DNA of 64,000 nucleotides from a virus (IMGVR_UViG_2718218135_000001:32001-96000), one strand, 5' to 3'; shown: positions 6,190-46,152, counted from the first letter of the stretch. A program made the numbers and translations. The notes: generated by a model from the letters alone, not told the origin.

Positions 6190-6714
6190 TTAAAACGGTA
6201 AAATCCGTTCGACCCAATCGAAGAGAACTATCGTTCGTCCGCGCTCGCCAACTCTCATTGCGACCTGACAGGCATCAACGCCTAACGAACACCCCTCAAT
6301 TTCACGGCCATCCGCCATGTAGACCCTTATAGACTTTTGCGCCTCATGAGCTTGACGACAAATTTTGAAGAAATCGCGGCGAGATGGCCGATTGTCCACA
6401 TAGTCAGGGTGTACAGTGAGCCTACCTGTAAACATCTTGTCCACTTCGACAGGTGTAATTGTTTCTATGGTGCTAACTCGCTCCAATGGAAGACGAACAC
6501 GATGTTCTTTACTTCCTATAACGGGAGAAAGATCTAGCTTATTGCGTGCGGTAAGCAGACCAATAACGTAAAGACAAAACGTCTGACCATCATCGATCGT
6601 GACCCTTACAGGTATATTCCTTGCCCGTAGGAACTGCAAACTAAACTCCACGTTAGAGTAGTCGCGGGGCCAGACCTCTGCTGGGATGCCGTATGTAATG
6701 TCTGTGATCGTCAT
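6190..6714 (-). CDS. hypothetical protein (174 aa), translationally coupled to upstream gene
   Basis: start overlaps upstream stop (TAATG). Confidence 0.55.
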   Translation of the reverse strand: MTITDITYGIPAEVWPRDYSNVEFSLQFLRARNIPVRVTIDDGQTFCLYVIGLLTARNKLDLSPVIGSKEHRVRLPLERVSTIETITPVEVDKMFTGRLTVHPDYVDNRPSRRDFFKICRQAHEAQKSIRVYMADGREIEGCSLGVDACQVAMRVGERGRTIVLFDWVERILPF

Positions 6715-7304
6715 TAGTCTACCTTAAGTGGCGTGTCGAGAAGCCCAAACTTAAACTGCTTGCTACCTGCCACGAGGAAGGGGGCTTCGATGTAAATGGT
6801 TTTGTTGTCGATATCTGATTTTGCGGTCTTTTTGATGTCTTTTAGAAGCCTAATTGTTGCTGCGTTGTCCAGAACAAGTACTTTGCCGGTCGCATCATTG
6901 CCGATTTTGCCGTATGTCGTGAACGATTCATTACTGCCAACGCGGATATTAATCGGGCAACCGCTCTTGGCGATCTCATCACAGTACATAGTTCCATCAA
7001 TCACATTTAGTAGACCGTAGGTTGGAACAAGAGCCTTGCCAGAGTTGGTGCTTGTTCCTTCTTTGACAGCTGTACCCATGATTTGAAGGCGCATATGTTC
7101 TGATTCACCGGAAATCAGTGTTTCTTCCGCGTTATCGGAATACCTGAACCATACAGGTTGAACTGTTCCTCTGGCCTCGTATTTTACATTGTCTAGGGTA
7201 GTGAACTTGCTGTACGTTTTTTGCATGTCAGCAACCATATCTGACACTGCATTGGCAGAGAATGATAGAATATAGGTGGTTACTAAGATGGCTAAACGAG
7301 TCAT
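6714..7304 (-). CDS. hypothetical secreted protein (196 aa)
   Basis: N-terminal signal peptide MTRLAILVTTYILSFSANA; GAGGT RBS. Confidence 0.55.
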   Translation of the reverse strand: MTRLAILVTTYILSFSANAVSDMVADMQKTYSKFTTLDNVKYEARGTVQPVWFRYSDNAEETLISGESEHMRLQIMGTAVKEGTSTNSGKALVPTYGLLNVIDGTMYCDEIAKSGCPINIRVGSNESFTTYGKIGNDATGKVLVLDNAATIRLLKDIKKTAKSDIDNKTIYIEAPFLVAGSKQFKFGLLDTPLKVD

Positions 7305-8485: not shown

Positions 8486-10045
8486 TTACTCTCTATCCAA
8501 AACAGTGAAATCGAATGTGCTGCCAACCGGCAAGACCCCCTCGGCAAACCCAGGCGTCGTGTCGATAATGTGTTTCCGCTCATATGAATGCGACATGAGG
8601 TATTTGTTGCTCACGTCGATGAAGTCGGTAATAAAGCACACGTTAGCCTGATTTTTCTTGGCTCGTAAGCCACGACCGACACGCTGTCTCATTTCAACTT
8701 CTGCTTTCCCGCCACCACCCAGAATCACCGCGCCTACGCTTGGAACGTCGACACCAACATCCAGAATGGTTGAACCAATGAGAACATCTATCTTGCCTGC
8801 CGCCAGACTATTAAGTTTTGCTTGTCGGGTAGTCTGGTTTGATTCTCCGTAGATGAAATCGACCTTGAGGCCACTCTCTTTCATCATTTCCATCAAGATC
8901 TGACCATGACGCTTCAGACGAACCAATGTCATACAGTTCAGACCGTGACTCTTGTACATTAGCGCTTCACGCACAATAGCTTCGTTGCGGCCCAGATTAT
9001 AGACGATGCCTAACTGATAGGCTTTCTGGTAAGCCGTGCTCATTCCAACCCTAAAATTCAGGTGTTTTGAAGCAAGTTCGGCTCTAATCCGCGTCTCATC
9101 TGGAGTGTACGCGATTTTATGATATAAAAAGTATGGTTTCGCTAAAATACCTCTGTCGATCAAATATTTCTCCGTTACTTTTATCTCGATGCGACCCGCA
9201 ACGGCCATGAGACGCATATTTGCTTCAGTCGAGTCCTTCATGAACGGCGTAGCTGTCAGCGCCAGACGGTAGTCGGCATTGGTACACAACCGGGCTATAT
9301 CGTAGAAGTTTGAGCCGGATGATTCGTGCGCTTCTTCCAGAATCAGCAGAGAAACGCTGGACAGGAAGCGCTTAACCAATTCCCGGCGTTTCAGGTGATA
9401 CTGTTTTTTCTCTGGAGATGCGTCGCGCGACGGCTCTTCGAGAAAACTAGCAAGGGTCTGAACCGTGGCAACGTTGATATGGCGCGATACCTGAAACTCA
9501 CCAGATCCAATCACCCCAACTTTCTGACCTTTCAGCCACGGCTCGCCATTCTTCGCGCGGTAGTCGATGGATTTCTGGAAGTTCTCTGCCATCTGGAACA
9601 TCAGAACCGAGCGCGTGGTTAAAAACAGCGTCATACGACCAATGCGAGCTGCTGCCTTACACGCTACGTTCGATTTACCGCCACCCGTCGCAATCTGGGC
9701 AATCATCATCCCTTCGCGCACCAGTGTTTCCACTGTCTGATCCTGATACGCGTAGTCCGGGTTATACGGGAATGGATTAACCACCGGATTCGGCTTACCC
9801 AGCGCGGGAGCTTTTTCCTTGCGAACATGCACGCATTTGATGCCAGCTTTCAGAAGATTGGTCGCAACTGGCTTCGCAAACCCAGCCGGGAACGCGTTTT
9901 TACTCCAGTTGAACATCGTGCTGGTCCCTTTCCAGTCACCAGCCTCCACTTCATAGCTCAACATCTCCTGAACAAGCCGTTTCACGTTGTCATCAGCGCC
10001 AGAAATCAGCGCATTGACTGCATTTGATACAATCCGAACAGTCAT
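8486..10045 (-). CDS. superfamily-2 DEAD/DEAH-box helicase
   Basis: Walker A IATGGGKS, DEAH-type box LILEEAHE, SF2 motif order; AAGGAAAGAGG RBS. Confidence 0.8.
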   Translation of the reverse strand: MTVRIVSNAVNALISGADDNVKRLVQEMLSYEVEAGDWKGTSTMFNWSKNAFPAGFAKPVATNLLKAGIKCVHVRKEKAPALGKPNPVVNPFPYNPDYAYQDQTVETLVREGMMIAQIATGGGKSNVACKAAARIGRMTLFLTTRSVLMFQMAENFQKSIDYRAKNGEPWLKGQKVGVIGSGEFQVSRHINVATVQTLASFLEEPSRDASPEKKQYHLKRRELVKRFLSSVSLLILEEAHESSGSNFYDIARLCTNADYRLALTATPFMKDSTEANMRLMAVAGRIEIKVTEKYLIDRGILAKPYFLYHKIAYTPDETRIRAELASKHLNFRVGMSTAYQKAYQLGIVYNLGRNEAIVREALMYKSHGLNCMTLVRLKRHGQILMEMMKESGLKVDFIYGESNQTTRQAKLNSLAAGKIDVLIGSTILDVGVDVPSVGAVILGGGGKAEVEMRQRVGRGLRAKKNQANVCFITDFIDVSNKYLMSHSYERKHIIDTTPGFAEGVLPVGSTFDFTVLDRE

Positions 10046-10090
10046 AAACCTCTTTCCTTCGTGCCTTTTGTATGGTAATTGGCTATTATG

Positions 10091-10106
10091 TTAAGTAAGT
10101 ACTTAC
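10091..10106. promoter_or_regulatory. TAAGTA-N-TACTTA palindromic box
   Basis: ttaagtaagtacttac in the divergent region between helicase and ParB-like operon. Confidence 0.5.
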
Positions 10107-10109
10107 ACA

Positions 10110-10808
10110 ATGGATTGTATCAAAAATATGGATGTGAAAATTACGATTCTACAGGTGGAAGTCGCGAACCTGCGTCCGAACCCCTGGAATACCAACTCCG
10201 TTGGGGCGCAAAACTTCGAAAAACTGAAAGGTTCCATCGAAAAGTTGGGCTTTTTTAAGCCAATTCTGGCGCGAGAGCTGGACGGCGGCATTTTTGAGAT
10301 TCTCGGTGGCGAACATCGCTGGCGTGCCGCGATGGAGCAGGGCATTTCAACGGTTCCCGTAATGTCGGTGGGAAAAATTAACGACCTGGTGGCCAAACAG
10401 ATGTCTCTCGTCGATAACGAGCGCTACGGCGAAGACGATCAGATCGCTTTGCAACGCTTAATCGAAGAAATTCAGTCTGAAATTGACTACCGGTTGTCTG
10501 ATATCGCCCCGTATGACGACGAAATGGCGGCAACGCTCGCCAAAGCATCCGTTATCGATCTTGAAGCGCTGGAAGCGCTCTCCCGCGGCGATGACGAGCC
10601 GGTCGGTGAGGACAAACGCGAGAAAATCGAGCGAGTCGGTGCTGAACACCAGACGATGCGCTTCAAGGTGACGTTCGATGCGTCAGATCGCGTCGCCGAT
10701 ACCATCAAAACCATCATCAAAGAGCAGGGAATCAATACCGGTAACGAAATGGAGAACGCCGGGGAAGCCTTGGTGTGGCTGGTCGACTACTACAAGGAGC
10801 GTATGTAA
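10110..10808 (+). CDS. ParB-like nuclease-domain protein 1
   Basis: ParB/Srx N-domain signature LRPNPWN ... GGEHRWRAA; start choice uncertain. Confidence 0.7.
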   Translation: MDCIKNMDVKITILQVEVANLRPNPWNTNSVGAQNFEKLKGSIEKLGFFKPILARELDGGIFEILGGEHRWRAAMEQGISTVPVMSVGKINDLVAKQMSLVDNERYGEDDQIALQRLIEEIQSEIDYRLSDIAPYDDEMAATLAKASVIDLEALEALSRGDDEPVGEDKREKIERVGAEHQTMRFKVTFDASDRVADTIKTIIKEQGINTGNEMENAGEALVWLVDYYKERM

Positions 10809-11476
10809 TGACCAAGAACTTTGAAATCGTATATCGAAACCCGGCAGAACTTATCCCGTATGAGATGAACGCCAAAAAACATGACGAACAGCAGATCCAC
10901 GACCTGGCGGCTGCCATCAAAAAGCGCGGTTTTGACCAGCCGATCACGGTCGACAAGCACGACGTCATCATTACTGGTCACGGTCGTCGCGAGGCGGCAC
11001 TTCTGGCTGGTCTGGAGCGTGTGCCTGTCATCGTTCGCGACGATCTGAGCGAAGAAGAAGTGAAGGCGAAGCGTCTTGAAGACAACCGCCTGGCCAGTAT
11101 TGACTACGACGCCATCAAATTGCAGCAGGAACTGGAGTCCCTGGTGCTGGGTGACGTTGAGGTCTTTGGTTTTGAAGAGCGAGAGCTGAACGTGCTTGTT
11201 GGCAGCATGACCGAAGAGATGGAAACAGGCTCTCTGGTGCTCGATCTGGGTGAAGAGACGGAACGCCAGAAAGAAGAGCACACCGAGATCAGTCGCGAAG
11301 TGGCCTCTGAAGAAGTCCGAGTCATCGACGTATTGGGCTTTAAAACGCTCCCTGCTGGCTCTGCCATTGTGGTTGGGGATTTGCTTGCCCACATGGAAGA
11401 AATTACGGGAGAAAGCGGGGTAGACGCTTTCGTGGCGTATGCGGAGAAAGTTTCCTCTGGGGAGCTGGCTGCATGA
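10808..11476 (+). CDS. ParB-like nuclease-domain protein 2
   Basis: HGRREAA arginine motif; start overlaps upstream stop (TAATG). Confidence 0.7.
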   Translation: MTKNFEIVYRNPAELIPYEMNAKKHDEQQIHDLAAAIKKRGFDQPITVDKHDVIITGHGRREAALLAGLERVPVIVRDDLSEEEVKAKRLEDNRLASIDYDAIKLQQELESLVLGDVEVFGFEERELNVLVGSMTEEMETGSLVLDLGEETERQKEEHTEISREVASEEVRVIDVLGFKTLPAGSAIVVGDLLAHMEEITGESGVDAFVAYAEKVSSGELAA

Positions 11477-12111
11477 GCAAATACACCATCAACGTATCGT
11501 TTCAGACCCGCGTGAACAAAACCACGCGCACGCTGGAGATTGCCGAATCGTTCGGTCTTGGCCTGGACGAAAAAGAGTGGACGCTTTACGACAATCTGGA
11601 GCTGGAAGTGAAGCAGGGCGATGTGGTGTACATCACCGGCCAATCCGGTTCCGGTAAATCCGTTGTGCTGCGCGAGCTGCAACGCCAGATGAAGGATGAA
11701 GGGCTTTCTGTAGCCTCCATCGATGACTTTGCCTTCGACAATGAGGTTAACGTCATTGACCAGCTGGGCAAAACCACCAGCGAAGCGCTGGGGCTGCTGT
11801 CTATGGCCGGATTGAATGACGCCTATCTCTTTGTGCGTAAGCCATTCGAGATGTCTGACGGCCAGAAATACCGTCTCAAGATCGCCAAGCTGATCGAGTC
11901 CGGCGCGAAAGTCTGGGCTGCCGACGAATTTGGCGCTGTTCTCGACCGTGTAACCGCCCAGGTTGTGGCGTCGAACCTCCAGCGTGCCGCCCGTAAGGTT
12001 GGTGCGACGGTAATGGTGGCGACGACCCACGAAGACCTGAAGAACGCGCTGCGCCCGGATATGCAGATCACCAAGCACTACAAAGAACGCGTGAAGGTGG
12101 AATATGCCTGA
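11473..12111 (+). CDS. compact ABC-type ATPase (212 aa)
   Basis: Walker A GQSGSGKS, signature-like SDGQKYRL, Walker B VWAADEF, H-loop TTHE; ATGA overlap with upstream gene. Confidence 0.7.
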   Translation: MSKYTINVSFQTRVNKTTRTLEIAESFGLGLDEKEWTLYDNLELEVKQGDVVYITGQSGSGKSVVLRELQRQMKDEGLSVASIDDFAFDNEVNVIDQLGKTTSEALGLLSMAGLNDAYLFVRKPFEMSDGQKYRLKIAKLIESGAKVWAADEFGAVLDRVTAQVVASNLQRAARKVGATVMVATTHEDLKNALRPDMQITKHYKERVKVEYA

Positions 12112-12358
12112 TTTGAAGATCGTAGAGCTGAAGCCATCGAAAGAGGCTGACAACAACAACGTTGAAGTCATCCGCCTGCTGGAAGAAGCACTCCAGTACG
12201 CCAGAGAAGGCAAAAGCCAGAGCCTGGCACTGCTGATGATCAACAACGACGGCAGTGTGCTGGATTGCTGGCATAACGGTGGGCGTCCATACGTCATGGT
12301 TGGGGCGATAGAATCGCTTCGCCTGGACTTCATCAATGCCAATATCGAGCGTAGGTGA
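12104..12358 (+). CDS. hypothetical protein (84 aa)
   Basis: overlaps neighbours on both sides. Confidence 0.45.
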   Translation: MPDLKIVELKPSKEADNNNVEVIRLLEEALQYAREGKSQSLALLMINNDGSVLDCWHNGGRPYVMVGAIESLRLDFINANIERR

Positions 12359-13254
12359 TCGACATGACAGGCATCATCATCAAACGCTACCGCCCGGAAG
12401 AGTTCCCGCGTCATCTGGACTTTCTGGAGCGTATGACCGTTACCAAAGGCACGGTTGAAGACTGGCACGCGCTGAAGTCGCTGCACTACAAGACGGATGG
12501 TAAGCCGTTTGCGCCAACGTATTATCGCTGCGAACTGGACGACCGGCTGGTGGGCGTCGTGGTTATGGCTTACCCGAAACTGCTGCTGGCGCCTCGCCAT
12601 CGCATGTTTCCTAAGCTGAAGCCAACCACCAATACCACCGTGGCCAACCAGTATTGGGGGCGGTACGTGAACAACAACTTTGCGGTGATCAGCCGTTCCG
12701 TTGTGGACACTCAGTACCGCGGTGTCGGCGTCTCCTATCGAATGATTAACCTGGTTAGCAGGATGCATAACCGGCCAATCATCGAGATTCAGTCGTCCAT
12801 GAGCAAATACAACCCGTTCGCCATGAAAGCAGGGTTCCAGTTCATACGTCCGGAGCGTCCGAAGAGCTATGAGAGTGCGTTGCGTGTTTTCCAGCGCCAT
12901 TTTCGCTCCGACCCTGGAGACAACGAAGCGATCGTCAAAGAGCTGTTCGCCATGAGTGAGTCTCGCCGTCGTCGTGCGCTGCGCGATCTGGTCGCGGACT
13001 ACCACAAGAACAGTTCCCTGGCCAAAGCCGGGCGTAATCGTGGCACGACGATTCAGGATATTGCCGACAGTCTGGTGGACGAGGCCAGCATCGTGAAGTT
13101 GCTCAAGGATATTCACAACCTGAGCTTCACGTCTCCGCTGTATGGCGTGTATCGAAACCCGGACTTCGGTCGTCAGTTGCCTGACACGCTGCCACTGCTG
13201 GCATTCGATAAGCAGCCTTTGAATAAACCTCTTGAAATTGCATTACCGGCATAA
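12355..13254 (+). CDS. hypothetical protein with GNAT-like Q/R-x-x-G-x-G motif (299 aa)
   Basis: QYRGVGVS resembles acetyl-CoA-binding motif A; start GTG 12355 or ATG 12364. Confidence 0.5.
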   Translation: MIDMTGIIIKRYRPEEFPRHLDFLERMTVTKGTVEDWHALKSLHYKTDGKPFAPTYYRCELDDRLVGVVVMAYPKLLLAPRHRMFPKLKPTTNTTVANQYWGRYVNNNFAVISRSVVDTQYRGVGVSYRMINLVSRMHNRPIIEIQSSMSKYNPFAMKAGFQFIRPERPKSYESALRVFQRHFRSDPGDNEAIVKELFAMSESRRRRALRDLVADYHKNSSLAKAGRNRGTTIQDIADSLVDEASIVKLLKDIHNLSFTSPLYGVYRNPDFGRQLPDTLPLLAFDKQPLNKPLEIALPA

Positions 13255-13263
13255 GGATTTGCC

Positions 13264-13530
13264 ATGACGTTGACCGATAAACAAAAAGACATCATCAAAA
13301 CCATCAATTTAGGCCATGAGCGTGGGTATCTGCTCGATCTGGACGAGCTGCTTGAGGTTCTGCCGTACAAAACGACCAAACAGAGTATGCAGTTCTCTAT
13401 CCGCGCACTGGTGAAAAAGGGGCTGGTGGAGAAGGGAATGTGCCGCCAGCGCGGCGATTCAGGTTATCACCGTCGCACGCTGGGACTGACCACGTTAGGT
13501 CGTGCAAGAGCCAAATTACTGGTGATGTAA
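13264..13530 (+). CDS. small basic protein, possible winged-helix DNA binder (88 aa)
   Basis: ORF; basic C-terminus; sits directly upstream of the perfect inverted repeat. Confidence 0.45.
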   Translation: MTLTDKQKDIIKTINLGHERGYLLDLDELLEVLPYKTTKQSMQFSIRALVKKGLVEKGMCRQRGDSGYHRRTLGLTTLGRARAKLLVM

Positions 13531-13551
13531 ACCGGTCTGGGAGCCAGATTA

Positions 13552-13615
13552 AGAACCTGCTTCCGTATATATAATTAACTAAGTGATTAATTAAATATAT
13601 ACGGAAGCAGGTTCT
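13552..13615. repeat. perfect 21-bp inverted repeat with 22-bp AT-rich spacer
   Basis: agaacctgcttccgtatatat ... atatatacggaagcaggttct; one arm repeated exactly at 43887-43908. Confidence 0.85.
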
Positions 13616-13647
13616 GAAGGCTCCCCAGCCCGATTTTAAACACCCAG

Positions 13648-13662
13648 AAAACAAATTGGTTA
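13648..13662. promoter_or_regulatory. degenerate AAACAA box
   Basis: aaaacaaattggtta. Confidence 0.35.
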
Positions 13663-13673
13663 GGCACAGAATT

Positions 13674-13687
13674 AAACAAGTTGTTTA
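13674..13687. promoter_or_regulatory. AAACAA-N2-TTGTTT operator-like palindrome
   Basis: aaacaagttgttta, 40 bp upstream of the TerS start, followed by hairpin gagcgca-agga-tgcgctc. Confidence 0.5.
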
Positions 13688-13726
13688 GGAGCGCAAGGAT
13701 GCGCTCTGAGTGTTTTAGAGGGACCT

Positions 13727-14368
13727 ATGACTGTAGAAAAAGACGAGAGCAAAACTCGCCTGACACCAGCTGAGTGGGCAGAAGCCGAAGCGAAATGGAC
13801 TTCTGGCGAATACACACTCTCCAGGCTGGAGGAAGAGTACGGCATTCGTCGTGAAACGCTCTCCAGACATTTCAAAAAGCGTGGATTAGAGAAAGGCGCG
13901 GACTCCGTTGGGAAGATGGTGCGCGAGTCGCTCAAATCCGACGCAGAGCTGCGTGCGAAGGCGCGTGCAGAGAAAATCGAAGAGCGCCGGACTCGTTACG
14001 ACGATTGGGCGTTCGCACTCGGTCGTATGGTGATGCATGAGGTGGCCATAGCCAAGAAGGACGGCAGGCCACTGGCAGCCATCGAAGATGACCTGAAGAG
14101 TCTCCAGCGTGCCAGCGGCACACTTGCTAAGTGCTTCGAAATATCGTCGAAAGCGCTCGGTATGGATCGCGTGGAGAACGAGGACGACGAAATCCCGAAC
14201 CTGGTATTTGGCGAACTTACGCCTTCCCAGGTGGCGCAGCTGCGTAAGGAAGATGATGAGCCGGATCTGATTGATGACGATCTGCTTGAGTCACTCGAAG
14301 AGGAAGCACTGAGCGAAGCTGAGGGCGATTCTGAAGCGTCTGGTGATGAAAGTGATGGGAGCGTCTGA
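13727..14368 (+). CDS. terminase small subunit (putative)
   Basis: 213 aa immediately upstream of TerL; acidic C-terminal tail. Confidence 0.55.
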   Translation: MTVEKDESKTRLTPAEWAEAEAKWTSGEYTLSRLEEEYGIRRETLSRHFKKRGLEKGADSVGKMVRESLKSDAELRAKARAEKIEERRTRYDDWAFALGRMVMHEVAIAKKDGRPLAAIEDDLKSLQRASGTLAKCFEISSKALGMDRVENEDDEIPNLVFGELTPSQVAQLRKEDDEPDLIDDDLLESLEEEALSEAEGDSEASGDESDGSV

Positions 14369-14370
14369 CT

Positions 14371-15627
14371 ATGGCCATCCCGTCGTCTCTGAGTCTCGTA
14401 CAGCTGCATTCTGGGCAGATGCAAGTCTTCCAGTCGCCACATCGTTTCAAAGTGGTGTGTGCGGGTCGACGCTGGGGTAAATCCCGGTTGTCGATCTCCA
14501 CCATCATCCGCGCGGCAGCCAAAGAGAAGAAGCAACGTGTCTGGTATGTCGCACCGACTTACCAGATGGCTCGCCAGATCTTGTGGGATGACCTGCAGGA
14601 AGTTCTGCCGCGCAAATGGGTTCGTAAGAAAAACGACACCACGATGACCATCGTGCTGAAGAACGGCTCTGAAATCGCGCTGAAAGGTGCGGATAAGCCC
14701 GATACGCTTCGTGGTGTGGCACTGCACTTTGTGGTGCTCGATGAATTTCAGGATATGAAGCCTGACACCTGGTACAAGGTACTGCGTCCGACACTGTCCT
14801 CCACCCGTGGCGGTGCGCTGATCATCGGTACGCCAAAAGGCTTCTCCGAGTTCCACAAGCTGTGGACTATCGGTCAGAACAAAGATTTGCAACGCAAGGG
14901 GCAGTGGAAGAGCTGGCAGTTCGTTACGGCCGATTCTCCGTTCGTACCGAGCGCGGAAATCGAAGCAGCGAAGAACGATATGGACCCTAAATCGTTCGCA
15001 CAGGAATACCTGGCCAGCTTCGAAAACATGTCCGGACGCGTTTACTACCCGTTCGACCGCAATGTGCATGTGAAGCCACTCCAGTTCAATCCGAAACTGC
15101 CGATCTGGGTTGGTCAGGACTTCAACATCGACCCTATGTCATCGGTCATCCTGCAACCGCAGCCAAATGGTGAACTGTGGGCTGTGGACGAATTGGTGTT
15201 GTTCTCTTCTAACACGGCTGAAGTGTGTGACGAGCTGGAGCGTCGATACTGGCGCTGGAAATCTCAGGTCACTATCTTTCCTGACCCGGCAGGTGCGTAT
15301 CGCCAGCACGCACGCGGCGAATCTGACGTCGACATCTTCAAAGAGAAAGGTTTCCTTCGAGTCGATTATCCGAAGAAGCACCCGCCGATCGCAGACCGTG
15401 TTAACGCAGTGAACCGCATGTTGATGAGTGCCTCGGGCGAAACCCGGTTGTACATCGATCCGAAGTGCAAACACCTCATCGACTCGCTGGAGAAGGTGAT
15501 CTACAAGCCAGGCTCACGCGATATGGATAAGACTGGCGGCATCGAACACAGTGCGGATGCGTTGGGTTATCCGGTTCATCGTAGGTATCCGGTGAAAAAT
15601 CGTGTTATTCTTGGTGGATCTAGATAG
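14371..15627 (+). CDS. terminase large subunit
   Basis: Walker A CAGRRWGKS, Walker B VVLDEF, C-terminal nuclease-type acidic residues. Confidence 0.85.
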   Translation: MAIPSSLSLVQLHSGQMQVFQSPHRFKVVCAGRRWGKSRLSISTIIRAAAKEKKQRVWYVAPTYQMARQILWDDLQEVLPRKWVRKKNDTTMTIVLKNGSEIALKGADKPDTLRGVALHFVVLDEFQDMKPDTWYKVLRPTLSSTRGGALIIGTPKGFSEFHKLWTIGQNKDLQRKGQWKSWQFVTADSPFVPSAEIEAAKNDMDPKSFAQEYLASFENMSGRVYYPFDRNVHVKPLQFNPKLPIWVGQDFNIDPMSSVILQPQPNGELWAVDELVLFSSNTAEVCDELERRYWRWKSQVTIFPDPAGAYRQHARGESDVDIFKEKGFLRVDYPKKHPPIADRVNAVNRMLMSASGETRLYIDPKCKHLIDSLEKVIYKPGSRDMDKTGGIEHSADALGYPVHRRYPVKNRVILGGSR

Positions 15628-15660: not shown

Positions 15661-17235
15661 ATGGAATTGACTGACAAGCAAATCAAAGACCTTGTGGCAC
15701 GACGCCACCCTGAATATGAGAAGAAAAAAGAACATTGGGACTTCCTCGCCAGCACCTACGCTGGCGGGCGTGCCTGGTTCAACGACAATATCTTCCGTTA
15801 CTTCAAAGAGGGCGATCAGGAGTTCAAAGAGCGCCTGGAACGCGCTTATCGCTTCAACCATACGCGCGAAGTGGTAAACCTCATCAACAAATACCTCTTC
15901 AAAGAGGTCATTCACCGCAACACTGATGAAGCACCGGAGCAGATCCGCAATTTCTGGAAGCGAGCCACGCGCCAGAACGCCTCCATCGATGCGTTTATGG
16001 CGGCTATCGATCTGCAATCATCCATTTATGGCCGTATCTGGGTTGTCGTGGATAGCACGATGAACGTCGATGTTGAGTCTGTTGCAGACGAGAAGAAAAA
16101 TGATGCGCGTGCCTACGCTTACTGGATTTCGCCGCAGCAGCTGCTTGATGTTGCCTGGGATGAAGACGGCAATATGTTGTGGGCGCTGATTGTTGAAATC
16201 GCGCGCGACGACGAAGATCCGTTCACTTCAACCGGGCAGGAATACCAGCGTTACCGTCTGTGGACGCAAAACGAGTGGTATCTGTTCCGTGAAGAAGTGA
16301 AGAAGGGTTCCGGAAATAGCGGTCGCCGTCAGGCCAAAGTCGTTCTGGAGGATAGCGGCCAGCATAATCTGGGCGTGGTGCCGGTGTTCCCGGTGGATTG
16401 CATTGGTGAAAGCGAGTCTCCGTATTTTAGCCCGTCGTTGATTGACGATATTGCCTATCTTGATCGCGCCGTGGCCAACTACCTGTCGAACCTTGACGCG
16501 ATTATTCAGGATCAGACATTCAGCCAGTTAGCGATTCCGGTTCAGTCCCTGCTGCCGGGCGATGAAAACCACACCAAAGTGCTCGAAATGGGGACAAAAC
16601 GTGTCTTCACCTTCGATTCTGAGAGCGGTAATCAGCCATTCTATCTGTCTCCAGACCCGAAACAGGCTCAGATGATCATCACCACGATTAAGACGGTGAT
16701 TAATGAGATCTACCATTCCGTTGGTGTGGCTGGTGAGCGAACCAAGCAGGATAACGCGCAGGGTATCGACAACTCTTCGGGGGCAGCGAAGATGTACGAC
16801 TTCCAACGTATTAACAGTCTGCTGGTGACAAAAGCAGAGCGCCTCGAAAGGGCAGAACGCCAAATGATGGAGTTGGCTGCGAAATGGATGGGCATCGAAT
16901 TGGATGAAGACCACTCTCTGATCGCTTACCCGGAGAGTTTCGATATTCGTGGTCTGACTGACGAATTTGCCGTCGCTGAGAAATTGTCGCTGTTACAGGC
17001 GCCTGATTCTGTACGTCGTCATCAGATGGAAATGCTCATAGAAAAGATCTTCCCGAATATTTCCGAAGCGATGCAAAAGGAATTTAAAAAAGATCTCTTG
17101 AAATTTCCTCTAAAAAATGCTCCTGATGCCCTTGAAAATAAGTTAGTACTTACTTATGATCGCGATACAGTCCAAGGAAGCGGACAAGATCAACCCCGAG
17201 GGAATGGGGACTCATCTACTCAAGAGACCGAGTGA
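15661..17235 (+). CDS. portal protein
   Basis: 524 aa directly after TerL in canonical order. Confidence 0.75.
   Translation: MELTDKQIKDLVARRHPEYEKKKEHWDFLASTYAGGRAWFNDNIFRYFKEGDQEFKERLERAYRFNHTREVVNLINKYLFKEVIHRNTDEAPEQIRNFWKRATRQNASIDAFMAAIDLQSSIYGRIWVVVDSTMNVDVESVADEKKNDARAYAYWISPQQLLDVAWDEDGNMLWALIVEIARDDEDPFTSTGQEYQRYRLWTQNEWYLFREEVKKGSGNSGRRQAKVVLEDSGQHNLGVVPVFPVDCIGESESPYFSPSLIDDIAYLDRAVANYLSNLDAIIQDQTFSQLAIPVQSLLPGDENHTKVLEMGTKRVFTFDSESGNQPFYLSPDPKQAQMIITTIKTVINEIYHSVGVAGERTKQDNAQGIDNSSGAAKMYDFQRINSLLVTKAERLERAERQMMELAAKWMGIELDEDHSLIAYPESFDIRGLTDEFAVAEKLSLLQAPDSVRRHQMEMLIEKIFPNISEAMQKEFKKDLLKFPLKNAPDALENKLVLTYDRDTVQGSGQDQPRGNGDSSTQETE
17138..17157. promoter_or_regulatory. TAAGTA-N-TACTTA-like box inside portal coding sequence
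   Basis: ataagttagtacttacttat within the 3' end of the portal ORF. Confidence 0.35.
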
Positions 17236-41863: not shown

Positions 41864-41898
41864 CATACGACAATAATTCACGCAAAGGAAACTCACCA

Positions 41899-42564
41899 AT
41901 GACCAAGATCATTGTGGTTGGCGGCACAAAAGGCGGCCCAGGCAAATCTACCGTTGCCCAGCAAATTGCGGTATGTCTCAAAGTTAAAAAGAAAAAGAAG
42001 GTTCACGTCACCGATATCGATATCCAGCGCACCACGACCAGCTGGTGTGAAGACCGTCGCCAGAACGAAGATCTTGAACTGATCCCGTTCGCTTATGTGC
42101 AGGACGACATCGTCAAACATCTTAAATCGCTTCAGGGGCGAACTGATTATGTAGTGGTAGATGCTGGTGGCTTTGACTCCGAAATTCAGCGTCTGGCGAT
42201 GCTTATGGCTGATGTAATCATCATCCCGCTGCGCCCTAAACGTCGTGATTTGAAATCTCTGCGTGATATCGACCCGATTATCGACAACGTTCGCAATGTG
42301 AACGAGAAAGTTAAGATCCGCGCGGTAATAAACCAGTGTCCGTCATTGCCTTCCCAGGTATCACGTATTCTGGCCGCGAAGGAAATTGTCGAAACTTTCG
42401 GCATCGAGGCTGCGCCGGTCAATCTGTACAACCGTAACGTTTATGACGATGCGGAAGAGGCAGGTCGTTCTATCTTTGAAATGACTGGCGCTGAACGCGA
42501 TAAGAAGGCAGAAGCCGAGTTCGAAGAGTTTGTAGATTACATCTTGAGTCTGGAGGAAGAATAA
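41899..42564 (+). CDS. parA: ParA-family partition ATPase (small, type Ib-like)
   Basis: deviant Walker A GGTKGGPGKST; 221 aa. Confidence 0.85.
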   Translation: MTKIIVVGGTKGGPGKSTVAQQIAVCLKVKKKKKVHVTDIDIQRTTTSWCEDRRQNEDLELIPFAYVQDDIVKHLKSLQGRTDYVVVDAGGFDSEIQRLAMLMADVIIIPLRPKRRDLKSLRDIDPIIDNVRNVNEKVKIRAVINQCPSLPSQVSRILAAKEIVETFGIEAAPVNLYNRNVYDDAEEAGRSIFEMTGAERDKKAEAEFEEFVDYILSLEEE

Positions 42565-42923
42565 TGTCCATGAGAATGGGAGACCTTGCAAAGCGCAATG
42601 AGCCTAAAGAACCGGCCAAAAGCAGCACTCCACTGCGCCAGCCAGTCAGACCGCAGGGGCGTCCGACTCGTGGCAAAGAGAAAATTAAAAGTCGCACAAT
42701 GTCACTGGAGGACGAATACTTCGAACTGCTGGAAATGATGAAGTTCATCCCTCGTTTCGAGAAGTTCACCCGTTCTGACGTGATTCGCGCCGCCATTTTC
42801 CATCTGGCAGAGAAGTCACCGCAGGAAATCGAGGACATCGTGAAACTTAACGAGGCGATCACAGCTGCCGATGTCACGATGCGTACCGATGAAATCAAAC
42901 GAGAGTTGATGAAGAAAGGTTAA
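42564..42923 (+). CDS. small partition/centromere-binding protein (ParG-like)
   Basis: 119 aa, basic N-terminus, ATGA overlap with parA-like gene. Confidence 0.55.
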   Translation: MSMRMGDLAKRNEPKEPAKSSTPLRQPVRPQGRPTRGKEKIKSRTMSLEDEYFELLEMMKFIPRFEKFTRSDVIRAAIFHLAEKSPQEIEDIVKLNEAITAADVTMRTDEIKRELMKKG

Positions 42924-42975: not shown

Positions 42976-43743
42976 TTATGCCGCGCTAACACTATGTTCA
43001 TTCCTAACCACCCCAACCTTCACAAAAGGGCTGCCGTAGCTTGGTGGCTTCTTGATTAATTTGCCTACATACAGTTTTCTAATATGCTCATCGGCTATTC
43101 TGCCAACAAATTCATAACGTTTTGTGTCGGGGCCAAGAGCTATATCCCTTGTAAAGTACTGCTGAGAACCGGCTTTGACCCAGCATTCAATCTGATAAAC
43201 TTCCATTATCAGGCCCCCATATGTAGCGTAGGCATATTTGAGATTCTCGTCTCTTGGAACCTTTGCCCATACGCCACGCGTAGCTTCATATAATGCCAGA
43301 GCGGACATTCCTGACTTGTAGGTGCTGTTTAGCAGGAAGGCAAGACCGGCGTGCTCAGGAGCAATTTCAGTTTCCTCTTGCAGCACTAAGTGATGGTAGG
43401 CGTCCAGTGATATTCTGCCCATCATGGAACCACTTCCTCGTACCTTATTCGTAAGCTCTCCGACACCCATAAGGTCGATGCATGTCGCCTCAACAAGTTT
43501 GGCTGTGGTTTCATCCATACCATGACGAAGAATATCTATGCCTAATTTTTTATTAGCCAAAAGTTCTTTGATCCGCATGGATTTGGGAGAGTCATCGGGA
43601 TACTTGATGTGATCGAGACAACGAGTCGATTTGCCTTTTCCTATGTAAAACGGTCTTTTCATCTTGTCTTCTGTATCATAGAGACAGTAAACATAGTATT
43701 TAGCCTTATCCAATGATCTCGCGTATACCGATAAATCGTCCAT
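42976..43743 (-). CDS. GIY-YIG nuclease-domain protein
   Basis: N-terminal YYVYCLYD ... RPFYIGKGKSTRCLDH. Confidence 0.6.
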   Translation of the reverse strand: MDDLSVYARSLDKAKYYVYCLYDTEDKMKRPFYIGKGKSTRCLDHIKYPDDSPKSMRIKELLANKKLGIDILRHGMDETTAKLVEATCIDLMGVGELTNKVRGSGSMMGRISLDAYHHLVLQEETEIAPEHAGLAFLLNSTYKSGMSALALYEATRGVWAKVPRDENLKYAYATYGGLIMEVYQIECWVKAGSQQYFTRDIALGPDTKRYEFVGRIADEHIRKLYVGKLIKKPPSYGSPFVKVGVVRNEHSVSAA

Positions 43744-43886
43744 TATTGCATCTCTTAGCTACTGACTAATGCGTTCTATTTTACACATAAGTTTTTAATC
43801 AATTTTACAGGCTCAAAGTGTAGAGCTTCTGGGTGTCTAAGACGACAAGTTATGCCTGTTTCTGTATATAAATAATAAGTAACTTA

Positions 43887-43908
43887 TTAAATATATACGG
43901 AAGCAGGT
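43887..43908. repeat. third copy of the 22-bp element ttaaatatatacggaagcaggt
   Basis: exact match to one arm of the 13.55-kb inverted repeat. Confidence 0.85.
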
Positions 43909-43990
43909 CTTTTAAAAGACACCCACCAGAACAACTCCCTTCCGTTTCCACTTCCCAAAAATATCTCCAGTCGCTATGATTCGCTCACTT

Positions 43991-44025: not shown

Positions 44026-44751
44026 GTGAGCCAGATCTTCTTCAACACTATCGACAATGACCAGTACGATTTCATGACAGAGTGGAATACCGCTGTTATG
44101 GACAAGTGGGTCGCTGAAAACATTGGTTTGTCGCGCTGTAAAGACGAGGCTGAACTCTTCGAGACGAAGTGGTTTGATTACCGCGACATGCACCCACTTA
44201 TGGCCACATGCCTTTTCACTGAGGCATACAAGCGCCAGTACTCATACATCATGCTGTCGCATGGTCGTGAACACTATGAGACGGCTCCATTCACAACCGG
44301 TCTGAAGCGTGTGCCATATCAGGAGTTGTCGACGGTCAACAAAACGTCGCTCTGGAAAGCACGCCAGTTTGCTGACCGCTATTGCTGCTCATACGACTAC
44401 TTTATCTCCACCGTTCTTTCCGCAGCTGCACGACGGCTGTGGGACAAATTACCGCGCCCCCAGCATCTCTGGCAGCCCGAGTTGATCGAGATATTCGAAG
44501 AGAAGTTAGCCAAACGCGCTGTAACCCGTCTGGATGACTCTCTGGTGAGTTTTAAGCATCTTGGAGACATGCAGCGTGACCCGATTCAGGAACGCTATTT
44601 TGAGTGGATTCTGGAGCGTCTGCGTGGCATTACCCGAGATAAACGCATCCGTATCATCTTCTCCGCTGTCTGGTTGATGGAAATCGTGCCTGAGCGTGTG
44701 ATTTACGCGCACTTCCCGGAAGAACTGGAAGAAGCACGGCGATTCTGTTGA
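44026..44751 (+). CDS. hypothetical protein (241 aa), possible replication accessory
   Basis: GTG start; directly upstream of helicase. Confidence 0.45.
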   Translation: MSQIFFNTIDNDQYDFMTEWNTAVMDKWVAENIGLSRCKDEAELFETKWFDYRDMHPLMATCLFTEAYKRQYSYIMLSHGREHYETAPFTTGLKRVPYQELSTVNKTSLWKARQFADRYCCSYDYFISTVLSAAARRLWDKLPRPQHLWQPELIEIFEEKLAKRAVTRLDDSLVSFKHLGDMQRDPIQERYFEWILERLRGITRDKRIRIIFSAVWLMEIVPERVIYAHFPEELEEARRFC

Positions 44752-44811: not shown

Positions 44812-46152
44812 ATGACCGAACTTTGCCACACAGGACGAGGGTTGTCTGAAGAGTTCGACGACGACTTCCAGAATCGACTCGCAGCCTACTTCTGTCGCGA
44901 CCATGAATTTCTGACTCGCGCCGGTGATCTGGTTGCGCCAAACCAGTTCTCCAATGCGGCCAACGCCATTCTGGTGAACATGGTGTCGGGCTACTATAGA
45001 ATGTATAAGAGCGCACCATCATCATCAGCCATCCTCGACATGCTCAAACGCGCCAAACGCGATAAGACGATCCGCGAAGAGCTGTTCCCTGACGTTGTTG
45101 AGGCGTTTAAGCGCATTCTCGCTGAGAAGCTGTCAGATACGGCGTACATGGTCGACCAGGTCGCGACATTTGCTAAAAGCGTAGCGTTCGACGATGCGCT
45201 AATTAAAGCGGCTGAGATGAAAGAGAAGGGCGATTTCCAGGGCGCGATGGCAATCATGGCTAAGGTCCAGCAAATTGGCTCTAACGAAGCGACCGGCATT
45301 TACGATTACTTCGCAGAATCAGCGGAGCGTTACAAGGCCCGTGAGTACGAAGCGTCCGACGATTACGTGCCAAACAGCATCACTACCGGCCTCCCGCTGC
45401 TCGACAAACTGCTTTACCAGAAAGGCTGGGCAAAGCGTGAAATGGTGCTGTTTATGGGCTTCGCTAAGTCTGGTAAATCGACGGCGATGGGGGAGTTTTC
45501 CATCAACGCCACGCTTGCCGGTTACAACGTCCTGTATCTGTCGCTGGAAGTTCACACCTCCATTCTGTCAGATCGCTTTGACGCCCGTCTGTCTGAGACC
45601 GAAATGTCCAGGCTGGTGGAACGTCGCGATGACGTCCATCGCAAACTGGCGGAGCTGGGTGCGACGAAAGGCGTGGGAAGTTTGTGGATTGTTGAACGAC
45701 CGTCCGGAAGCATGTCGCCCGCAGATCTGGACCGTATGTTGGGCAGCATGAAAGCCAACGGTATGGTCCCCGATATGGTTGTGGTCGACTACGCTGACCT
45801 GATGCGTGCCAGCTACGACCTCCGCGACGACCGCGCTAACATTCGCAGCATCTACACTGACCTGCGTGCGCTGTACGACAAACACAACGTTGCCGGCATC
45901 ACGGCATCGCAGACTAACAGAGAAGGTGGCGCTTCTGAGGTGGCTACAATGATGCACGCAGCGGACAACATCGAGAAGGTGCGTATCGCTGATCTCGTTA
46001 TCACTATCAACAAAACGGAAGAAGAAGAAGCGAAAGGCGAAGCGCGTCTTTACTTCGCTGGTTCACGTAACCAGAAAGGCGGCGTAAGCATCCGCGTTAA
46101 GCAGAACCTCGAACAAATGCGATTCATCGAACGCATTATGGACGTCATCTAA
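44812..46152 (+). CDS. DnaB-like replicative helicase
   Basis: Walker A GFAKSGKST in a RecA-like C-terminal domain. Confidence 0.7.
   Translation: MTELCHTGRGLSEEFDDDFQNRLAAYFCRDHEFLTRAGDLVAPNQFSNAANAILVNMVSGYYRMYKSAPSSSAILDMLKRAKRDKTIREELFPDVVEAFKRILAEKLSDTAYMVDQVATFAKSVAFDDALIKAAEMKEKGDFQGAMAIMAKVQQIGSNEATGIYDYFAESAERYKAREYEASDDYVPNSITTGLPLLDKLLYQKGWAKREMVLFMGFAKSGKSTAMGEFSINATLAGYNVLYLSLEVHTSILSDRFDARLSETEMSRLVERRDDVHRKLAELGATKGVGSLWIVERPSGSMSPADLDRMLGSMKANGMVPDMVVVDYADLMRASYDLRDDRANIRSIYTDLRALYDKHNVAGITASQTNREGGASEVATMMHAADNIEKVRIADLVITINKTEEEEAKGEARLYFAGSRNQKGGVSIRVKQNLEQMRFIERIMDVI

Follow-up and report, generated by a model that had tools for sequence, protein, structure and literature searches.

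The stretch of DNA examined here is 64,000 nucleotides (nt) of a viral genome (IMGVR_UViG_2718218135_000001:32001-96000, called the window below, with positions counted from its first letter), and our subject is a group of six genes at 10,110-13,530, which we call P1 to P6. Bases 10000-13594 have 96.4% nucleotide identity to the right end of Salmonella phage SSU5 and 82-85% identity to SSU5-like phage-plasmids of Klebsiella and E. coli; the region therefore belongs to an SSU5-type siphophage that lives as a plasmid prophage. The six genes form an operon that is a split and expanded form of a widespread virus cassette, in which a ParB-like protein, an ABC ATPase and a GNAT acyltransferase occur together, usually beside the packaging genes.

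All six genes appear in the open reading frame (ORF) listing, in the same direction on the plus strand. P1 (10110..10808) encodes an acidic protein of the ParB/Srx fold with 232 amino acids (aa) and an isoelectric point (pI) of 4.6, and P2 (10808..11476) encodes a second acidic protein of this fold with 222 aa and a charge of about -24; both match Pfam ParB_N. They are followed by P3 (11473..12111), a minimal ABC-type ATPase of 212 aa that matches Pfam ABC_tran; P4 (12104..12358), a small acidic protein of 84 aa; P5 (12364..13254), a basic GNAT-fold acyltransferase of 296 aa with a pI of 9.8 and a charge of +15; and P6 (13264..13530), a small basic protein of 88 aa with a pI of 10. From P1 to P6 the proteins belong to phrog_723, 930, 293, 796, 886 and 900, each a large PHROG, while no family match was found for P4, P5 or P6 in Pfam, NCBIfam or PADLOC. 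The start of P2 is the ATG at 10808, within a TAATG that overlaps the end of P1 by 1 nt, and not an earlier codon. For P5 the start is most likely the ATG at 12364, which is preceded by the ribosome-binding site AGGTGA and gives the same 296 aa as in SSU5_129 and cluster P0001; a GTG at 12355 is the alternative.

An earlier note on this DNA had described six ORFs chained by overlapping stop and start codons. The six ORFs are there, and the first three junctions do overlap (by 1, 4 and 8 nt, in that order), but the remaining two are gaps of 5 and 9 nt, the first of which would become a GTGA overlap if the GTG start of P5 were used. With three of five junctions overlapping and every spacing at 9 nt or less, this is a tight operon. 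No sigma-70 promoter-like site was predicted in 9900-14000, the spacer upstream of P1 included, and neither a tRNA gene nor an Rfam element was found within the operon or adjoining it. The note had also placed the operon upstream of the packaging genes, and these indeed follow directly on the same strand: an acidic TerS-like helix-turn-helix (HTH) protein (13727-14368; phrog_867), TerL (14371-15627; Pfam Terminase_6N, E 1.9e-9) and, directly after it, the portal (15661-17235). None of the six proteins is a recognised terminase subunit, in agreement with the note's remark that no obvious terminase component is among them. On the other side, a superfamily 2 (DEAD/ResIII) helicase is encoded on the minus strand (8486..10045; Pfam DEAD, ResIII and Helicase_C, with a weak XPB-like C-terminus), divergent from P1 and with 64 bp between the two start codons.

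The ParB-like nature of the first two proteins, which had been noticed from their arginine motifs, holds up well against the profiles. P1 matches Pfam ParB_N (PF02195) with 51.5 bits (E 1.1e-13) and P2 with 35.9 bits (E 7.6e-9), the cut-off being 26.3 bits. In 28 orthologues the GGxHR motif of P1 is invariant, as is the GHGR motif of P2, and P1 has in addition a conserved small C-terminal domain (RFKVTF…GEALVWL). Aligned to Spo0J (1vz0), P1 reads GEHRWRAA where Spo0J reads GERRYRAA. Both proteins are strongly acidic (P2 also has a pI of 4.6), and this acidity is consistent across their families. In TIGR00180 they score 38.9 (P1) and 47.1 bits (P2) with a cut-off of 58.45, and the match of P2 covers the N-terminal domain only. 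P2 matches phrog_930 (E 7e-115), phrog_498, named 'DNA methyltransferase' (E 1.9e-32, profile positions 29-182 only), and the N-terminus of the PADLOC MTase_II profile (E 5.8e-18). These matches place it nearest to the ParB part of phage ParB-methyltransferase fusions; the methyltransferase domain itself is missing.

P3 carries a full set of ABC-ATPase motifs in its 212 aa, as had been claimed, and all of them are conserved in 30 orthologues: the Walker A GQSGSGKS, the signature MSDGQ, the Walker B VWAADEF and the H-loop TTHED. Its match to ABC_tran (PF00005) reaches 48.9 bits with a cut-off of 25 (E 1.3e-12). An ABC transporter was considered for P3 and ruled out, with no membrane permease encoded in the operon, equivalog scores far below their cut-offs, and a GNAT protein as the partner.

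That partner, P5, was studied with an alignment of 40 homologues (A1), from which an AlphaFold2 model and a search profile were made. The model has a mean predicted local distance difference test score of 89.5. The QYRGVGVS that the earlier note had called GNAT-like proved to be the conserved loop that binds the pyrophosphate of coenzyme A (CoA), in which R122 and G125 are invariant; across A1 this CoA-binding motif is conserved along with about 35 invariant residues. P5 is a GNAT-fold protein, with the Q/RxxGxG/A CoA-pyrophosphate-binding loop by which the superfamily is recognised. The relatives Jace gp86 and P335 Orf25 match Pfam Acetyltransf_1 above the cut-off. The closest solved structures are small-molecule and protein N-acetyltransferases, with Mom no closer, and the profile of P5 found no match among the Protein Data Bank sequences even at E<=10. 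The helical C-terminal domain of P5 (residues ~172-299) has no structural relatives and is new. The half made up of the GNAT and the C-terminal domain is consistently basic in this family, with a mean charge of +9 in the split proteins and +17 in the fused ones.

These fused proteins are what ties P3 and P5 together. The A1 profile, searched against 1.8 billion representative proteins, found 990 relatives. Beyond the family of ~300 aa, most of them have 450-500 aa, with the P5-like part at the C-terminus and an ABC_tran domain (Pfam) at the N-terminus. An alignment of the fused proteins (A2) shares its motifs with P3 and P5 (FGLG, ITGxSGSGKS, SDGQKYR, ATTH, HY(R/K), YRG(I/V)G, YNPF and Y..NP), and P3 and P5 together cover the single-chain ABC-GNAT proteins from end to end. 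On the strength of this end-to-end cover and the common family motifs, P3 and P5 are the split form of a single-chain ABC-GNAT enzyme. The JGI/COG label given to P5-family members, 'ABC-type ATPase with predicted acetyltransferase domain', describes the same architecture, and the profile of the fused proteins matches Jace gp86 with E 8e-52. The ParB component is also found in the same chain. Three archaeal proteins of ~630 aa (P0368, P0372 and P0378) have an extra N-terminal ParB domain with the GEHR motif of P1, and BLASTP of P1 against the N-terminus of P0378 gives E 1e-8 over 155 residues; two IMG/VR loci (L103 and L107) encode the ParB-ABC-GNAT triple fusion too. The link between ParB, ABC and GNAT is thus one of gene fusion in addition to neighbourhood. 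The earlier note had missed these relations: that P3 and P5 are halves of a fused enzyme, that ParB is sometimes part of the fusion, and that the neighbourhood recurs in many unrelated bacterial and archaeal viruses.

Several variants of the fused protein deserve mention in their own right. One (P0162) has an intein (LAGLIDADG/Hint) inside the ABC domain, an archaeal one (P0155) has a C-terminal TFIIB repeat, and in others (P0175/P0191; L069 5580-9362 and L096 5445-9377) the ABC-GNAT protein forms a single ORF with a family-B DNA polymerase. In Streptococcus phage 315.4 (L130 3989-5058) and Lactococcus phage P335 (L133 3989-5043), the annotation gives ABC and GNAT an ORF each, overlapping or close together, and the tblastn match to them comes in two pieces; the gene may be naturally split, or there may be a frameshift, possibly a programmed one. 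The database names of the six genes of the operon are misleading: P5 appears as an 'ABC transporter ATP-binding subunit', P2 orthologues as a 'DNA methyltransferase', and P1 and P2 as a 'partition protein'.

Of the two small proteins, P4 (phrog_796, E 3.7e-46) is the least conserved member of the operon, and its tblastn matches are confined to close relatives. Small acidic proteins sit between P2 and P3 in the alphaproteobacterial relatives; they match P4 weakly at the profile level (E 0.024) and are possibly related to it. P6 had been called a small DNA-binder. Small and basic it is, and a weak match to the winged-HTH C-terminal region of a CARF protein in PADLOC (E 4.6e-4), the one support for a winged helix, suggests that it is possibly a winged-helix DNA-binding protein. 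By tblastn or blastp, nearly all relatives have a small protein with weak similarity to it after P5.

How stable this arrangement is in the SSU5-like lineage was seen by searching ten window proteins with tblastn against 33 loci, namely three distant phages (Pseudomonas nickie, Rhizobium RHEph10 and Stenotrophomonas BUCTxx99) and 30 genome loci of diverse Proteobacteria, most of them on contigs of ~100-118 kb. The earlier note had proposed a comparison of gene order in related phages, and the order proved to be kept in 30 of 30 complete loci among the 33 examined, down to about 40% protein identity: helicase on the minus strand, then P1, P2, P3, a place for variable small genes, P5, a P6-like gene, and the TerS-like gene, TerL and portal, with P4 as the variable member. 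The helicase keeps its position beside P1 in all 30 loci that reach that far upstream. An arrangement found in every complete related locus is therefore not due to chance. In the distant loci, P3 has 53-65% identity, about the same as TerL (54-65%), P5 has 35-48%, and P1 and P2 have 31-49%. With P3 as conserved as TerL, and the cassette present in every SSU5-like member examined, these are core genes of the lineage and not cargo. There are also phages whose TerL is about 40% identical to this one and which have no cassette; the cassette is therefore not compulsory for this terminase machine. None of the six proteins matched a characterised accessory protein, and the genes are not confined to separate occurrence in other genomes.

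Some relatives carry unrelated small genes inside the operon, between P2 and P3 or between P3 and P5 (L002 4390-4692; L022/L024/L032 ~6530-6950; L015 6112-6573). Among their products are a DUF2829 protein, thioredoxin-like proteins and a HAD-type phosphatase, and the operon therefore tolerates moron insertion.

Outside this lineage the linkage to packaging genes is found again. In 39 of 70 IMG/VR loci with the fused gene, a TerL (cluster c2, Terminase_6N/6C) lies within a few genes, usually directly upstream, and the fused gene is often the last on the contig. Independent proviruses (L127/L128 and L035/L036) have TerL followed by ABC-GNAT with a spacing of 8 bp; this order, TerL before ABC-GNAT, is the one seen in archaeal proviruses. 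Among cultured phages, the ~350-410-aa form of ABC-GNAT is present in 82 records. Five more of them have the order ParB_N, ABC-GNAT, a few small genes, TerS/TerL and portal, namely Streptococcus pyogenes 315.4, Lactococcus P335, Gordonia BiggityBass (genes 1-4), Rhodococcus Jace (gp85-86) and Leptospira LE4 (gp14-15). In other viruses the ABC-GNAT gene lies among replication genes (Pol III alpha, DnaB, a RecJ-like DHH protein, RNase H, gyrase, PolB and DNA polymerase), and fused genes also adjoin DNA methyltransferases. In Burkholderia phage phiE255 and a Porphyromonas phage it comes after the tail genes. The Mu-like phiE255 has a pair of ABC-GNAT and formyltransferase genes after a tail-fibre assembly gene (L132 3956-5688, gp29-gp30), in the position that mom, the gene of a DNA-modifying GNAT, has in Mu.

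The formyltransferase of phiE255 is one of several neighbours with a chemistry related to acyl groups or amines. In Gordonia BiggityBass, Burkholderia phiE255 and Porphyromonas phage007a, which are unrelated to one another, a Formyl_trans_N gene lies directly downstream of ABC-GNAT. In Jace, ABC-GNAT is followed by aspartate decarboxylase (PanD, gp87) and a family-III CoA-transferase fragment (gp88), which could be a local source of a donor of the β-alanyl-CoA type. A Heliorestis prophage has Amidoligase_2 and GGACT genes between ABC-GNAT and TerL, and ASCH proteins occur beside the cassette in Streptococcus 315.4 and in archaeal viruses (cluster c14); an ASCH protein of E. coli, YqfB, is an N4-acylcytidine amidohydrolase (PMC6972931).

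A few other elements of the window were noticed. Between P6 and the TerS-like gene is an inverted repeat (13549..13618) with arms of 24 nt that are 96% complementary and an AT-rich centre of 22 nt. A second copy (43850-43912), whose right arm is identical and whose left arm is degenerate, is found in the divergent spacer that precedes the ORF at 44026 and the DnaB-like helicase. Both copies precede a similar ACACCCA(C)CAGAA(A)ACAA stretch, and in both cases a plus-strand gene starts ~110 bp downstream. In SSU5 there is a further half-site after the methyltransferase SSU5_088 (L004 18305-18320, SSU5 ~78304), the first palindrome is exactly where the linear records of SSU5 and Cyrano end, and RHEph10 has a palindrome with 34-nt arms at the equivalent place. 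The palindrome might act as an operator or a terminator, or be associated with cos; the copy at 43.9 kb and the SSU5 half-site weaken the case for a unique cos or parS site. Some 30 kb from the operon is a ParA/MipZ-type ATPase of 221 aa with a partner of 119 aa (41899-42923); the ATPase matches MipZ, CbiA and ParA, and the partner has no Pfam match. Beside this locus are a LEM-3-like GIY-YIG nuclease ORF (42976-43743, minus strand) and the DnaB-like helicase (44812-46152). ARAGORN reports a tRNA-Asn(gtt) at 59235-59309 on the plus strand and a tRNA-Lys(ttt) at 41887-41967 on the minus strand, the latter doubtful since it overlaps the start of the ParA ORF.

The reading that we favour, tentatively and with rather less than even confidence, is that the operon encodes a nucleoside triphosphate (NTP)-driven N-acyltransferase that acts on phage nucleic acid, most likely DNA, before packaging or late in infection. 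The grounds for proposing an N-acyltransferase on DNA are that the catalytic motifs are conserved, that the GNAT half is basic and that DNA-metabolism genes lie nearby, together with the amine-tailoring partners, the precedents for ParB-like proteins and the mom-like position of the gene in phiE255. There is one familiar model for such a machine. TmcA/NAT10 joins a P-loop ATPase to a GNAT and makes N4-acetylcytidine in RNA; to our knowledge it is the only ATPase-coupled GNAT acting on a nucleobase. As we picture it, the products of P1 to P6 would act on the phage's own DNA after replication and before or during packaging. P5 would be the catalytic subunit, moving an acyl group from acyl-CoA to an amino group, most plausibly an exocyclic amine of a base such as N4 of cytosine, while its basic body and C-terminal domain would hold the nucleic acid. 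P3 would be its ATP-dependent partner, presumably dimerising on ATP as other ABC proteins do; it could clamp or remodel the substrate so that the base reaches the active site, as the helicase domain does in TmcA/NAT10. P1 and P2 would be NTP-binding activators or regulators of the enzyme, in the manner of the ParB-like partners of other DNA modifiers, and P4 and P6 (the latter perhaps through its winged helix) lineage-specific accessories. DNA modified in this way would be protected from host nucleases in the next host.

For the part given to P1 and P2 there is good precedent. Thymine dioxygenases of phages require ParB-like activators that have no DNA-binding domain, and the genes concerned are in many cases found together with terminases (PMC13229309). 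The DNA transglycosylase DpdA works together with DpdB, a ParB-like ATPase (PMC12839542 gives a summary). Binding of ATP, GTP or CTP is a property of ParB folds, which are in many cases fused to methyltransferases; fusions of ParB with acetyltransferases exist too, one of which binds GTP (PMC12704722). The analysis itself establishes the gene content, the folds, the split and fused forms of the enzyme, the ParB fusion, the stable neighbourhood with terminase and the recurring tailoring enzymes nearby. DNA as the substrate in place of RNA or protein, the type of reaction, what P1, P2, P4 and P6 do, and the purpose of the modification are inferred. A specific chemistry such as N4-acyl-cytosine, which is drawn from the analogy with TmcA and the link to ASCH, is less likely than the general statement of an N-acyltransferase. 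A bolder version would have the whole cassette as an unrecognised system for ATP-dependent N-acylation of DNA bases, in which the acyl groups differ between lineages and are supplied or trimmed by the formyltransferase, PanD and CoA-transferase, amidoligase and ASCH neighbours, and by which tailed viruses of bacteria and archaea would mark their genomes shortly before these are packaged; N4-acyl-deoxycytidine would be one conceivable product. This we regard as possible but on the doubtful side.

A number of points weigh against a DNA acyltransferase. A GNAT fold does not reveal its acceptor, and Mom is no closer to P5 than the small-molecule and protein N-acetyltransferases that are its nearest structures. 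No report of a modified base in SSU5-like phages was found in the literature. ASCH and formyltransferase neighbours are equally compatible with an RNA or tRNA target; moreover, the formyltransferase, ASCH, PanD with CoA-transferase, and amidoligase genes belong to other lineages, and none is present in the SSU5-type operon or in the window. Anti-restriction modifications are not usually conserved as strictly as TerL. No HTH or other DNA-binding domain was detected in P1 or P2, and most archaeal ABC-GNAT genes have no detectable separate ParB nearby, so ParB is not essential to the core activity. Functional studies of the cassette were not found in the literature searched (COG2401, SSU5, and ParB with GNAT and terminase).

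The position of the genes invites a different explanation, that of a packaging accessory in which the ParB/Srx proteins would be NTP-regulated nicking nucleases or site binders and the ABC ATPase would help the terminase to recognise, cut or finish the cos site, a role like that of the HNH protein in HK97-type 3'-cos phages. The cassette is directly upstream of TerS, TerL and portal both here and in at least six unrelated phage lineages, it comes directly after TerL in archaeal proviruses, and it stands last ahead of the cut that ends the SSU5 and Cyrano records. In one relative, TerL falls into the cluster of 3'-cos terminases (PMC8537276); some ParB/Srx proteins are able to nick DNA (see the review PMC5512222), and no HNH gene was seen beside the terminase genes. 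We nevertheless think a packaging role unlikely, given that a conserved and apparently active acyl-CoA-dependent GNAT has no obvious part in cutting or translocating DNA, that many ABC-GNAT genes are in replication modules or after tail genes, far from the terminase, and that a separate TerS-like protein is already present; the phages with a 40%-identical TerL and no cassette, and the archaeal copies without ParB, speak against it as well. The location also brings to mind accessory cargo, such as a toxin-like module or the defence or anti-defence system that the earlier note had suggested. In several prophages the gene is at the very edge of the element, where morons accumulate, a small ORF neighbouring the Porphyromonas phage gene was flagged by its annotators as an anti-CRISPR candidate, and the operons of relatives hold variable small genes, the DUF2829 gene among them. 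PADLOC, however, gave no significant match, only generic P-loop and methyltransferase ParB-domain matches, and a P3 that is conserved like TerL in every SSU5-like member examined is unlike cargo of fast turnover; that suggestion is not supported, and we consider it quite improbable. The two other readings offered in the note, DNA modification and a packaging accessory, are the ones favoured by the evidence. Partition, for which two ParB_N proteins, an ATPase and nearby palindromes could be cited, is largely refuted and can be given hardly any weight. The ParA locus at 41899-42923, which the note had placed near 41.9 kb, is confirmed as a complete locus with a partner, and it is the real partition candidate; the ATPase adjacent to P1 and P2 is of the ABC type, with no ParA beside it. 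P1 and P2 are highly acidic, far below the TIGR00180 cut-off and lack a detected HTH, a GNAT has no role in partition, and the cassette is kept in phages isolated as lytic and in integrated proviruses, always beside terminase or replication genes, and occurs in phages that show no likeness to plasmids. The note was right not to see a classical ParAB locus here.

If the acceptor were not DNA, two further possibilities arise. P5 and P3 could sit on phage DNA as an acetyltransferase whose targets are lysines in proteins of the nucleoid or chromatin, such as HU, H-NS, Alba and histones, or in the phage's own replication and packaging proteins, which would lower the affinity of these proteins for DNA so that replication and terminase can proceed, with P1 and P2 regulating the complex. 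Such an activity would account for the terminase and replication neighbourhoods both in bacteria and in archaea with their chromatinised DNA, and the basic GNAT half with its C-terminal domain could anchor the enzyme to DNA. It would leave the formyltransferase, PanD and CoA-transferase, amidoligase and ASCH neighbours unexplained, however, and no candidate substrate protein is conserved in the neighbourhood; nor do we know of any precedent for a protein acetyltransferase coupled to an ABC ATPase. We judge it improbable on these grounds. The other possibility is an N-acyltransferase of RNA or tRNA that retunes translation late in infection, an analogue of TmcA with an ABC ATPase in place of the helicase domain. 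TmcA/NAT10 itself is the precedent for an ATPase-coupled GNAT acting on a nucleobase, and the weak similarity of P3 to the ABC-F ribosome-binding ATPases fits with such a target. ASCH is a PUA-like, RNA-associated domain, YqfB hydrolyses N4-acetylcytidine (PMC6972931), and Formyl_trans_N includes Met-tRNA formyltransferase. DNA is indicated, on the other hand, by the ParB partners, by the fusions to PolB and by the terminase and replication genes nearby, and the operon has no tRNA gene or Rfam element in it or next to it. An RNA target therefore seems to us a slim prospect.

Should the operon indeed encode an N-acyltransferase of DNA, phage genome modification would gain a new family of enzymes and, with an ABC ATPase driving acyl transfer, a chemistry new to the field, with a bearing on the evasion of restriction and CRISPR, on sequencing artefacts and on enzyme tools. 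In the bolder version it would define a new class of phage DNA hypermodification present in phage-plasmids of clinical Enterobacteriaceae, in S. pyogenes prophages, in dairy lactococcal phages and in thaumarchaeal proviruses. Genes that hundreds of phage and plasmid records, those of the SSU5/pHCM2/pKpn phage-plasmids that spread resistance genes included, wrongly call 'ABC transporter', 'partition protein' or 'DNA methyltransferase' would then be given a function. It would also extend an emerging rule by which ParB-fold proteins are NTP-dependent partners of DNA-modifying enzymes. Even with a protein target or a role in packaging, this is a core gene set conserved like the terminase across bacterial and archaeal viruses. 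Its carriers include genetically tractable phages (SSU5, P335, 315.4 and actinophages).

It is worth setting the operon beside the systems that it resembles. The ABC-GNAT enzyme, its ParB fusion and its terminase linkage appear to be undescribed, while the components, and the theme of a ParB-fold partner plus a DNA-modifying enzyme, are known. The nearest relatives are the fused ABC-GNAT proteins of the COG2401 or MK0520 type, which have the same motifs and are covered fully by P3 and P5; they are single chains, whereas the SSU5-type operon has two genes with P4 between them. The C-terminal helical domain is longer in P5, and the ~350-aa phage forms such as Jace gp86 do without it. The likeness to TmcA/NAT10 is in the logic of an architecture that couples a P-loop ATPase to a GNAT, and is drawn by analogy, and no wider homology than the GNAT fold was looked for or seen; TmcA has a RecD-like helicase ATPase, no ParB partner and a tRNA or rRNA target, where an ABC protein and ParB are found here. 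The Mom protein of Mu, a GNAT-fold DNA adenine methylcarbamoylase, has no sequence-level relation to P5, and structural scores do not separate Mom from other GNATs. P5 differs from Mom in that its CoA-binding motif is canonical and in its need for, or fusion to, an ATPase. The HNH endonuclease of HK97-type phages has the same position, as the last gene before cos-TerS-TerL-portal in what is probably a 3'-cos phage; no match to an HNH domain was found with Pfam in P1 to P6 or in the TerS-like protein, and the ParB/Srx, ABC and GNAT chemistry is unrelated. The Dpd 7-deazaguanine system was set aside, as none of the six proteins has a TGT domain. There is also a likeness in organisation to the ParB-like activators (the 5mYOX-associated ParB, DpdB, the ParB-methyltransferase fusions and DndB), which have a ParB/Srx NTP-binding domain with no evident DNA-binding domain, beside or fused to a modifying enzyme and often near the terminase, just as in the present operon. 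The partner in those systems is a dioxygenase, a transglycosylase or a methyltransferase, whereas here it is a GNAT coupled to an ABC ATPase and accompanied by two ParB paralogues.

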